A DNA stretch of 50,635 bases from Girardia tigrina (Eukaryota), in NCBI GenBank assembly GCA_001938485.1, contig MQRK01219800.1, forward strand, positions 1 through 50,635, given 5' to 3'. The notes under the pieces were generated by a model that did not search any database, had not been told where the DNA came from, and saw only the letters and a list, made by a program, of their open reading frames with translations. Position 1 is the first letter of the stretch; the number at the start of each line of letters is the position of its first letter. Both the position numbers and the translations under genes were made by a program. This document shows, in pieces, positions 742 through 3,570 of this stretch.

Positions 742-3570
742 ATGGACAGTCAGCCTTCAACAAGCTATGGAGTCACCAGTGTCATTCCCAATGTCGCAAT
801 CTTGAGACAAATGGAGGAGAAACTGCTAACTTTGGAAGAGCAGTATTACATATTGGTGGATTTAAAAGATCAGGGAGAACTAATAGCGAATCACTTAAAG
901 GACCTACGTCAAGTATATGAACACCTATCGGAAAGACGATACTGGGAGAAACAAACCCAGTTAATGGTCAACATACTCAATGTTATAGAGGAGTTGTTGA
1001 TGAAAATCGACCAAAAAATGAAGAAAATGGAACAAACCAAGGCCGCAATAGAGGCATATACGGAATTAATCGAAGACGAAGATAAAGAAAATGCCGATTC
1101 CGAAATAGCAGACCCATCCTAAACGTGATAACTTGGATTCTCCTCCGGATGGACATTATTACCAATCGGATGAGTCGGACTATGAGAGCATCGATGAAAA
1201 GGACGAACAGTATAGTATGTCGTTGAATAATGTCAGACAATTAGAAGTAAACATGGTAAAAGAAATCCTCTCGAAAGTACTGAACCTGCCAGAAGAACAA
1301 GATAAAGAACCTTTCAAGGATACCGAACAAATGAGCATATATGGTCCAGAAATACGGCTGCGATAGCCTTGTACAACCCATCGAGGAATTTAGTGAAGAG
1401 ACATGGTCATGTTTGTAAAGTGCACGAACCGTTGTCGGCGTATAAAGTAATTACATAATTACACGAACATCCAGAAAATGCAACAAGGTCAATAGAAGTC
1501 ACGTCATTCCATACGAAAGAATTAAAAGCTAGGATCAGACATCGATTTAGGGAGGAATATACACTCTTAGTGAGTGGACAATATATGGTGGCTTATACAA
1601 TCCGACATCTTGTTGAAGCTGGAATATGGCCAGGATATGTGGGTGTGGTAGAGTTAGTAATGACAAGAGGAACAAAGAAACTCGCGAAACCATTTATTGA
1701 GAACAAACGACAATTTAAATTGAACCGTGAAAAAAATATTGGCATAGATATCTTAAACATCATGAATTTAACAACGGGCTTTAAGATCCAATCGATGGTG
1801 CAAAACTAGTACCAGCTATATGAGGAAAATTGGGAAGTATATATCAAAGTATGGGAAATTACATCGTTGGAAATGTTATGATACCACCTTCTCCAATACA
1901 ATCCGAAATAAAATTACGACTAAGGACAGTGATCGGTAACATCTTGGACAATTTCAATGAATGACCGCATCCAGTAAACGGGATAGATTTATACCATTAT
2001 CAGACTCGACTTCTTGAGAGTATAATCAACATCCTCAACAGCATATACTGACAGTATGAATGGGAGAAAGAAGAAGAGTTACAAAAACTAAATAAAAGAT
2101 TTTACGCGAAATGGATAACCCAGAACCAAAAGATCACGCTGCGCTATTTAGACCATCATGTCAATTTCGAGCATTTTATGCAGCCAATGTGCGAAATTCG
2201 ATGCCACACCACGGTCAGAGACGTGAAGTTAGACGTGTTCCATGATTATAAACCCGGAGCAGTGCTGCATTATGGGATCCGAGCATTGAGAGATAATGAT
2301 GCAGAAATAATAAGTAGGAAGTGAGTCCGATGGAAGTTTATCGTTCGGATGACACGGAGATATTGTTAACGGCTATAACATGTACGCCATACGATATCGC
2401 AAGTGATGTGAATTTTAATAAATACACTCTCATCACCAAGTTGTTTGATCTGTATGAGGAATATTTTATTAACGGAAGGATGAAGACGAATACAATTGTC
2501 AGTATTACGTACCAATGCAAATACAAACTATCTACGAACTTGGAGGTGTGCTGCGGGAGAGGCGAGAGGATGTACACCCCGTATTGGTTAAAATGCCACA
2601 AATATATAATCAAATGAGAAATGGACCGTATAATACCTTTTATTTGTGGGAATTTTTATTTCAGTTTGTAAATAGAATCTCGTTTGGAGGGTATGAACAC
2701 TATCAATTTGTTATCAATGACGGGATAATGAACCACACAATTGACATTCACGGAAGAGATCCACCGGTAGAAGCGATATATGACGCCATCAATTACTGAA
2801 CAAGAGATCCTTATGTTCCCATTTGGGAAGGACGACAATTAACCCAATATGGAGTATTAAGAAAAATATTCTTCTGGTCAAAGGACCCGATTTATTTGGA
2901 ACAGCGTGCGAGAATAGAAAATTGCCAATATCGATGTAATTTGGACGAATTTTACGAAACTTATGTCACTAACGTAGTTGAGAAGATGCTTAATACAAAT
3001 ATCACTGCAGCAACATATTATAATATACCTAGTCAAACATCGTCACCATATAAAAGAAATCACTTCACCAGGCGAACAATAGAATTATTACTCTGTATAA
3101 TATGAGAAATGGTACAATTAAGGGAGGAACTGTTCAAGATGACATTGGCGGGTTTGCAAGACAAAATAATTCGAATCCACAACGTGGAACATCAAATACC
3201 AGAAGCTGAGGAGATGAATGAATGTCAAAGCATTTAACGGATTGGTCAGCAATACTAACCGCAAAATTGCCGAATAGCGTACAACACACCTTCAACGTGA
3301 GTTACAATATCACAATACACTAACTGAGGGGATTAATAAACGAGGCCGTTCGAGATCTAGTTCTACCGACAAGTCGATTCACAGATTTAGTAATATGTTA
3401 CCAAGGAAAAATACTGGAGCCAGATAATGAACTGATCATTGCACATGGATTATGGGATTACCAGAGAGGGTAGACACCTCGAAGGGTAGTCCCAAACAGG
3501 CGGCAGTGGACTCATGAGAGTCCAGGGGTACGATAAATCTTTCATATAGTGCAATGGAGAGGACTGAAGG
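742..3570 (+). pseudogene. Accessory ORF: N-terminal coiled coil/acidic region plus 3-4 tandem ubiquitin-like domains
   Basis: Read through stops/frameshifts: 1441-1671 YKVIT*...RSIEVTSFHTKELKARIRHRFREEYTLLVSGQYM...HLVEAGIWPG...VVELVMTRG (77 codons); ~2130-2320 KITLRY...TTVRDVKLDVF...VLHYGIRALRDND; 3252-3560 ILTAKLPNSVQHTFNVSYNITIH*LRGLINE...LVICYQGKILEPDN...FHIVQWRG; weaker copy 1708-1937 ending IKLRLRT. Confidence 0.6.

Follow-up and report, generated by a model that had tools for sequence, protein, structure and literature searches.

The Burro (GYPSM1) elements of dugesiid planarians are the closest described system to the locus reported here. According to the partial text of PMC6431247, they approach 30 kb in length and consist of one huge open reading frame (ORF), in which a Gag with two or three CCHC knuckles is accompanied by a Ubi2/SUMO-like motif (between MATH and BCL-2 domains), an in-frame Env with homology to mononegavirus fusion proteins between Gag and protease (PR), and a dUTPase-like stretch between PR and reverse transcriptase (RT). 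The same text reports that the accessory MATH, BIR, ankyrin, and Smc domains vary between species and that decaying Burro fragments occur in one species; the available part of PMC11410931 only mentions Burro. The element type and one Ubi2/SUMO-like motif are thus already published. Ubiquitin-fold sequence within a polyprotein is also found in cytopathic pestiviruses, where inserts of ubiquitin or ubiquitin-like (UBL) sequence, sometimes in two copies, are recent captures acting as cleavage signals (PMC13517609, partial text).

The window (the whole stretch of DNA analysed, 50,635 nucleotides) is contig C219800 of the Girardia tigrina assembly, which comprises 1.43 Gb in 255,254 contigs. Segment 1441–3457 belongs to a decayed Burro-like giant gypsy copy, likened to Burro1–4 by published layout rather than by sequence, and unbroken relatives in the same genome carry up to five UBL domains (A to E), three of them well supported and two probable. 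The window copy itself is dead, with 8 stops and 4 frameshifts over 1357–3467 (Table 1). Because it is broken, fold and profile work was done on natural unbroken relatives, chiefly a homologue of 1050 residues (P0001, L009:586-3735:-) that is 47–66% identical to the window pieces. P0001 was folded in two halves from alignments of 69 and 79 natural segments (redundancy-filtered from 148 and 183); overall confidence in the half models is low (mean pLDDT 53.6 and 56.2).

Table 1. Features of the decayed giant gypsy copy in the window
Feature	Position	Strand	Remarks
High-copy 5′ leader of element	1..411	+	79–88% identical in most of 40 scored genome matches
152-codon upstream ORF	664..1122	+	Precedes gag in relatives (C181156:1660-1991; gag frame opens at 2368)
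Acidic linker, lead-in to UBL block	1148..1440	+	Putative site for the element's own protease (inferred), VNM motif near 1246
UBL domain A (first-pass copy 1)	1441..1671	+	Unbroken homologue in L009; stop at 1456
Predicted helical spacer 1, includes first-pass copy 2	1672..2117	+	Frameshift near 1731; stops at 1782, 1821, 1962, 2049
Probable UBL domain B (first-pass copy 3)	2118..2350	+	Frameshift at 2316–2320
Predicted helical spacer 2	2351..2688	+	Frameshift between 2503 and 2551
Probable UBL domain C, missed in first pass	2689..2904	+	Stop at 2797
Predicted helical spacer 3	2905..3239	+	Stop at 3103; frameshift at 3216–3222
UBL domain D (first-pass copy 4)	3240..3457	+	Cut before last strand; stop at 3321
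Unrelated ~600-bp interspersed repeat with 95-bp insert	3456..4154	.	High-copy in genome
In-frame Env, C-terminal part (mononegavirus-type fusion protein)	4154..5557	+	PF24664, E 1.8e-25
Aspartic protease, dUTPase-like stretch, reverse transcriptase, all broken	6555..8110	+	dUTPase match seen in relative C249044
Post-integrase polyprotein extension, no family assigned	8161..10889	+	Continuing frame in relatives

The retrotransposon context proposed in the first-pass annotation is borne out by the Gag-to-integrase (IN) frame and the long terminal repeat (LTR) pair of these relatives. One of them (C249044) has a single open frame of 4142 codons spanning Gag to IN, of which 183 residues are unknown, in the order Gag (two zinc knuckles), UBL block, BCL2-like domain, Env (PF24664, E 2.6e-75), PR, dUTPase-like stretch (PF00692, E 4.5e-5, 23.7 bits against a cut-off of 22), RT, RNase H (RH), and IN. 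A member of a sister subfamily (C227859) is bounded by LTRs at 31462–33945 and 57706–60164, which are 97–99.7% identical over their aligned parts, giving an element span of 28.7 kb. One huge ORF, a Gag with CCHC knuckles, Env in frame between Gag and PR, a dUTPase-like stretch separating PR from RT, and an overall size of close to 30 kb are all shared with Burro as described in the partial text of PMC6431247, as is a Ubi2/SUMO-like feature ahead of the BCL2-like domain, which corresponds here to domains A, D, and E; that text names one such motif in Burro, whereas the element here has three to five UBL domains. MATH, BIR, ankyrin, and Smc gave no Pfam match in the parts scanned, which do not include the 5′ leader of full-length copies. 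In further contrast to Burro, the frame of C227859 runs about 1,400 codons past integrase. The BCL2-like domain before Env is a weak identification: 55 of its 60 PDB rows are Bcl-xL or Bcl-2, largely constructs of one protein, the best E value is 0.041, and it has no Pfam match; it is deleted in the window.

The post-integrase extension has no Pfam family and possibly encodes extra surface proteins. Several hydrophobic stretches are seen in this part of the frame in the sister subfamily (G000:C227859:34240-38400, loci L175 and L176) and in its counterpart in the window, and by eye they resemble signal peptides or membrane anchors. Adjoining the 5′ LTR, G000:C227859:57650-57706 resembles a primer-binding site, which we take to match tRNA-Pro.

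Stretch 1400–3600 of the window has 59 DNA matches in the genome at 68–87% identity (40 scored of 250 candidates), two identical contigs aside. A protein query covering C and D has 139 genome matches, among them a younger subfamily at about 33% identity, whose open frames reach 4142 codons. Contigs from RNA runs X1 and X2 cover 30 of the 30 bins of the younger subfamily and those from X3 and X4 none; no expression is claimed, since repeats elsewhere in the window are also covered and DNA carry-over is possible.

Three losses distinguish the window copy from its relatives: gag, just 3′ of the upstream ORF (a 2.3 kb gap in C226612); the end of D through mid-Env; and RH and IN. The second is occupied by the interspersed repeat, which replaces the relatives' D end, helical domain, UBL domain E, BCL2-like domain, and first part of Env, and for which all 40 scored candidates matched (202 candidates). 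The remaining Env is interrupted by an AT-rich insert at about 4807–5142. The upstream ORF has no significant Pfam match. The 5′ leader is possibly an LTR end with a decayed primer-binding site; it has no match in the window from 12431 onward. A 3′ LTR of this copy was not confirmed, and no tRNA genes were found. The same ~600-bp repeat also lies at the start of env in C226612, and the copy in the window contains a 73-bp inverted copy of 6102–6174. Bases 1–4959 of the window are 100% identical over 4959 bases in contigs C233524 and C67150, reflecting either assembly redundancy or very recent duplication. At 19891–23062 (minus strand) are the decayed remains of another gypsy-type element, of the ordinary kind, with fragments of PR, RT, RH, and IN.

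Domains A, D, and E are well supported as UBL domains, D by profile matches and A and E by their predicted folds. Of 25 natural copies of domain D, 24 match PF00240, with E values down to 1.7e-7, and 20 of its 23 PDB-sequence matches are named ubiquitin or UBL proteins, with Dsk2 and ubiquilin leading (best E 0.006); its model is middling (pLDDT 44–64). The homologue of A is predicted (L009) to fold as beta-beta-alpha-beta-beta-alpha-beta, with a block pLDDT of 71–88, and Foldseek pairs it with SUMO1 (E 6e-4), while its VIA matches are UBL domains (best Z 8.8, rmsd 2.8, 79 aligned); 49 of the 50 VIA rows align within residues 1–94. Domain A has no Pfam UBL match in 16 copies, and its best PDB-sequence match is the ARF5 domain (E 0.035), which we take to be a PB1-type self-associating beta-grasp. 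Domain E, absent from the window, is predicted at pLDDT 73–87 and matches UBL domains with Z up to 9.9 (rmsd 2.0, 73 aligned). Fold-search rows are taken up by A and E, leaving B, C, D, and the spacers uncovered. A phmmer search over 1.84 billion protein representatives gave six unnamed matches, and word searches of protein databases gave nothing or P0002 alone. A distant relative (P0007, 33%) shows an E-like domain, about 100 residues, a hydrophobic stretch, and then Env, with little room left for a BCL2-like domain.

The first-pass annotation had read this region as four tandem UBL copies, each ending in R-G. Its copy 1 (1441–1671) is a real UBL, domain A. Copy 4 is likewise a UBL, domain D, from about 3240 to 3457; its 3′ end and R-G are foreign DNA, since 3456–4154 is the unrelated high-copy repeat. 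For copy 3 the UBL assignment probably holds, as domain B, and the shift at 2316–2320 puts its "RMTRR" end in the wrong frame. Copy 2 (1708–1937) has to be withdrawn as a frame artefact, the conserved frame switching near 1731 so that the pattern mixes two frames; its homologue is predicted to be helical (at low confidence), with no UBL among six PDB-sequence rows, and the LRLR motif is not constant across 31 copies. The R-G ending, too, is no shared trait: of 21 rows for A just one has it, the identical twin of the window, at B it is out of frame, and at D it comes from the repeat. Nor is the array tandem; the domains form a dispersed string, 110–150 residues apart here and 215 between D and E, so that 110–215 residues separate each pair. 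The window's own broken segments, read with X at stops, give no Pfam UBL match.

Domain C is a probable UBL, and B is probably one as well, the weakest of the five. The model of B is poor, with the elements in UBL order (strand-strand-helix-strand) at pLDDT 25–53; that of C has two strands, a helix, and a strand at pLDDT 58–78, the last strand not being modelled. In atlas searches, where scores below 0.9 count as leads only, three of the four named rows for B (lead 0.84) and all five for C (0.84–0.88) are ubiquitin or UBL families. Profile-profile comparison of the best non-overlapping pairs gives 31–40% for A–E and 14–31% for B–D, with reversed controls at most 19%. Among 390 polyprotein windows the best non-self match of the D profile is B and that of both A and C is E; post-integrase windows outscore the UBLs for the B and E profiles, and a single host ubiquitin sequence does not rank the domains reliably. 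The alternative that true UBLs are limited to A, D, and E, with B and C being other small alpha/beta domains or chance look-alikes, draws on the lack of any UBL match for B and C in Pfam or PDB sequences, the lack of fold-search rows on either, and the low confidence of the B model; we consider it rather unlikely, given the strand-strand-helix-strand order predicted for both, the named atlas rows, the first rank of B for the D profile, and the Trp and G-x-x-hydrophobic motif that C shares.

The UBL block is under purifying selection. Pooled dN/dS over close pairs is 0.28 for A, 0.14 for B, 0.20 for C, 0.11 for D, and 0.08 for E (0.08–0.31 across the five domains); these values refer to rows preselected as open frames and to pairs that are not independent, with one bin saturated. 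Selection does not single out the UBLs, because the spacers are equally constrained (dN/dS 0.10–0.27). Spacers 1–3 have no credible family, and profile comparison shows no repeat relation between them. Directly before E lies a confidently predicted five-helix domain (L009:847-1080:-; pLDDT 73–86) with positions invariant across subfamilies and no credible family; a TFIIS-N-like identity was not supported.

The block is collinear over residues 2–1045 between subfamilies about 34% identical, whose RT is about 70% identical, and it predates them. Between these subfamilies A and C are 28–30% identical, B 39%, and E 51%. With the register set by eye, the residue equivalent to ubiquitin Gln62 is Trp in A (18 of 19), C (35 of 37), and D (30 of 31). 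From this we infer that the domains arose by internal duplication of one ancestral UBL and not by separate captures, in line with the old duplication suggested earlier.

None of 130 domain ends carries LRGG and only one carries GG. A di-Gly end is required for conjugation and for cleavage by deubiquitinases, so conjugation and host-deubiquitinase cleavage are very unlikely here, and the expectation of several diverged, non-conjugatable UBLs lacking di-Gly is confirmed. The residue equivalent to Ile44 is hydrophobic in A (16 of 17) and E (15 of 15), Thr or Cys in 27 of 29 D domains, and mixed in B and C (register by eye); this polar or variable position in B, C, and D argues against canonical ubiquitin-receptor binding, and with Thr/Cys in D and His/Phe in B the earlier suggestion of decoys is weakened for such receptors. 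The motif [VILM]-N-[ALMV]-[LMIVA], which we take to resemble gypsy protease sites, occurs six times in 4142 residues, although it is degenerate, with about three occurrences expected by chance on a rough estimate, and two of the six lie within Env and IN. Two of these putative cleavage motifs bracket A–D, one before A and one after D, with none inside it; the others follow the knuckles, mark the RH–IN junction, and lie inside Env and inside IN. The one following the knuckles and the two bracketing A–D have counterparts at equivalent places in the other subfamily, about 34% identical.

Several cellular systems invite comparison. Proteasome shuttles (Dsk2, ubiquilin, Rad23, Ddi1/2) combine a single N-terminal UBL, whose Ile44 patch is intact, with a UBA domain. 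They provide the best sequence matches for D and, like the element, carry UBL sequence embedded in a larger protein with no di-Gly end; they differ from the element in that it has several UBLs, Thr/Cys at the Ile44 position of D, and no detected UBA. The C-terminal UBLs of USP7, and ISG15, FAT10, and OASL, likewise combine several diverged beta-grasp domains per chain, and such multi-UBL structures are among the fold matches. Their UBL domains are closely linked, whereas those of the element are separated by 110–215 residues of predicted helical or disordered sequence and lie in a retroelement polyprotein. Compared with the recent pestivirus inserts (PMC13517609, partial text), the element's UBLs are old and long under selection; they share about 20% identity with ubiquitin and carry no LRGG.

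We propose, giving the reading an even chance, that the UBL block of this Burro-like polyprotein is cut free by the protease to serve as an adaptor docking ubiquitin-proteasome proteins of the host. One captured cellular UBL would have duplicated internally and then diverged. The element's aspartic protease would cut at the motifs flanking A–D to free a cytosolic protein of about 830 residues, and E would go with the next piece, together with the helical domain, the BCL2-like domain, and a membrane anchor before Env. The UBLs would serve as integral binding modules, not as tags. Their partners may be host degradation factors, so that with the BCL2-like neighbor they would protect the element's proteins or the host cell. 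This host-adaptor role, chosen in view of the likeness of D to proteasome-shuttle UBLs, its closest matches, and of the apoptosis-type domains nearby, is the least certain step, and we hold it slightly more doubtful than not. Still more speculative, and on the unlikely side, is the full combination in which a four-UBL accessory protein of about 830 residues, its UBLs derived by internal duplication from one captured domain and alternating with helical domains, is freed by the protease and hijacks host proteostasis alongside an element-encoded BCL2-like protein as a retrovirus-style counter-defence kit.

The poor retention of Ile44 in B, C, and D, together with spacers as constrained as the UBLs, keeps scaffold and spacer roles alive. 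The UBLs might be internal scaffolds that organise assembly between the capsid and Env by binding one another or the Gag, nucleocapsid, or RNA of the element, much as Ubl1 of coronavirus nsp3 binds nucleocapsid; the block directly follows the nucleocapsid, equal conservation of spacers and UBLs would fit a single folded machine, B, C, and D have not retained the canonical surface residues of ubiquitin, and the best PDB-sequence match of A is, as noted, to a domain that is presumably self-associating. Ordinary gypsy elements, however, assemble without a comparable block, D is nearest to proteasome-shuttle UBLs, and the BCL2-like, BIR, and MATH neighbors in Burro suggest host regulation (PMC6431247, partial text), so that scaffolding seems an unlikely alternative to host docking. 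A role as spacers and as aids to the folding or solubility of a very long polyprotein, with no specific partner, would suit the retention of fold-core positions while many surface positions vary, and the low identity of A and C between subfamilies; the higher identity of B and E between the same subfamilies and the near-invariant, probably exposed Trp of A, C, and D make this improbable. By far the least probable reading is that they are host-deubiquitinase processing signals, as the first-pass annotation suggested by analogy with pestiviruses, or conjugated modifiers: they do sit within a polyprotein, and fragments of the BVDV polyprotein are among the viral structural matches to the A–B model, but the element encodes its own protease and the domain ends lack the di-Gly that such cleavage needs.

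No report of several UBLs in a retrotransposon polyprotein was found in the literature searched, which was available in part; Grohme 2018, Jurka 2007, and Fig. 2A of PMC6431247 may show more. About half of the Burro polyprotein is unannotated in print, and about 1,000 residues of it are now ordered into UBL and predicted helical domains; with the candidate cut sites, these allow single domains to be assayed for host partners. If the adaptor reading is true, a retrotransposon acts on the ubiquitin system via an integral UBL array. The surprise is limited, as the window copy is dead and the element type and one UBL motif were already published.

Other repeat families in this genome carry near-intact ubiquitin in long ORFs (L143:7905-9998:-, L145, L147:360-3104:+, L148–L153, and L155–L162), and PF00240 gives 3445 first-look candidates across the genome. 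In one such family a fragment of Hsp90 is fused to ubiquitin (PF00183, E 8.8e-28) that ends in LRLCGG, and the repeat adjoins a DUF1758 peptidase frame; in another, ubiquitin ending in LRLRGG precedes DUF1759, and in L153 a fragment of PRMT lies upstream. The two families appear to be BEL/Pao-like. These near-intact ubiquitin repeats are better candidates for pestivirus-type cleavage signals than the UBLs of the giant element. A stand-alone ubiquitin ORF of 81 codons (L031:3211-3453:+, in G000:C243577) lies on the opposite strand in the env region of a related copy, and many contigs have ORFs of 81, 157, or 242 codons that encode between one and three ubiquitins, a pattern suggestive of a mobile insert that carries ubiquitin.
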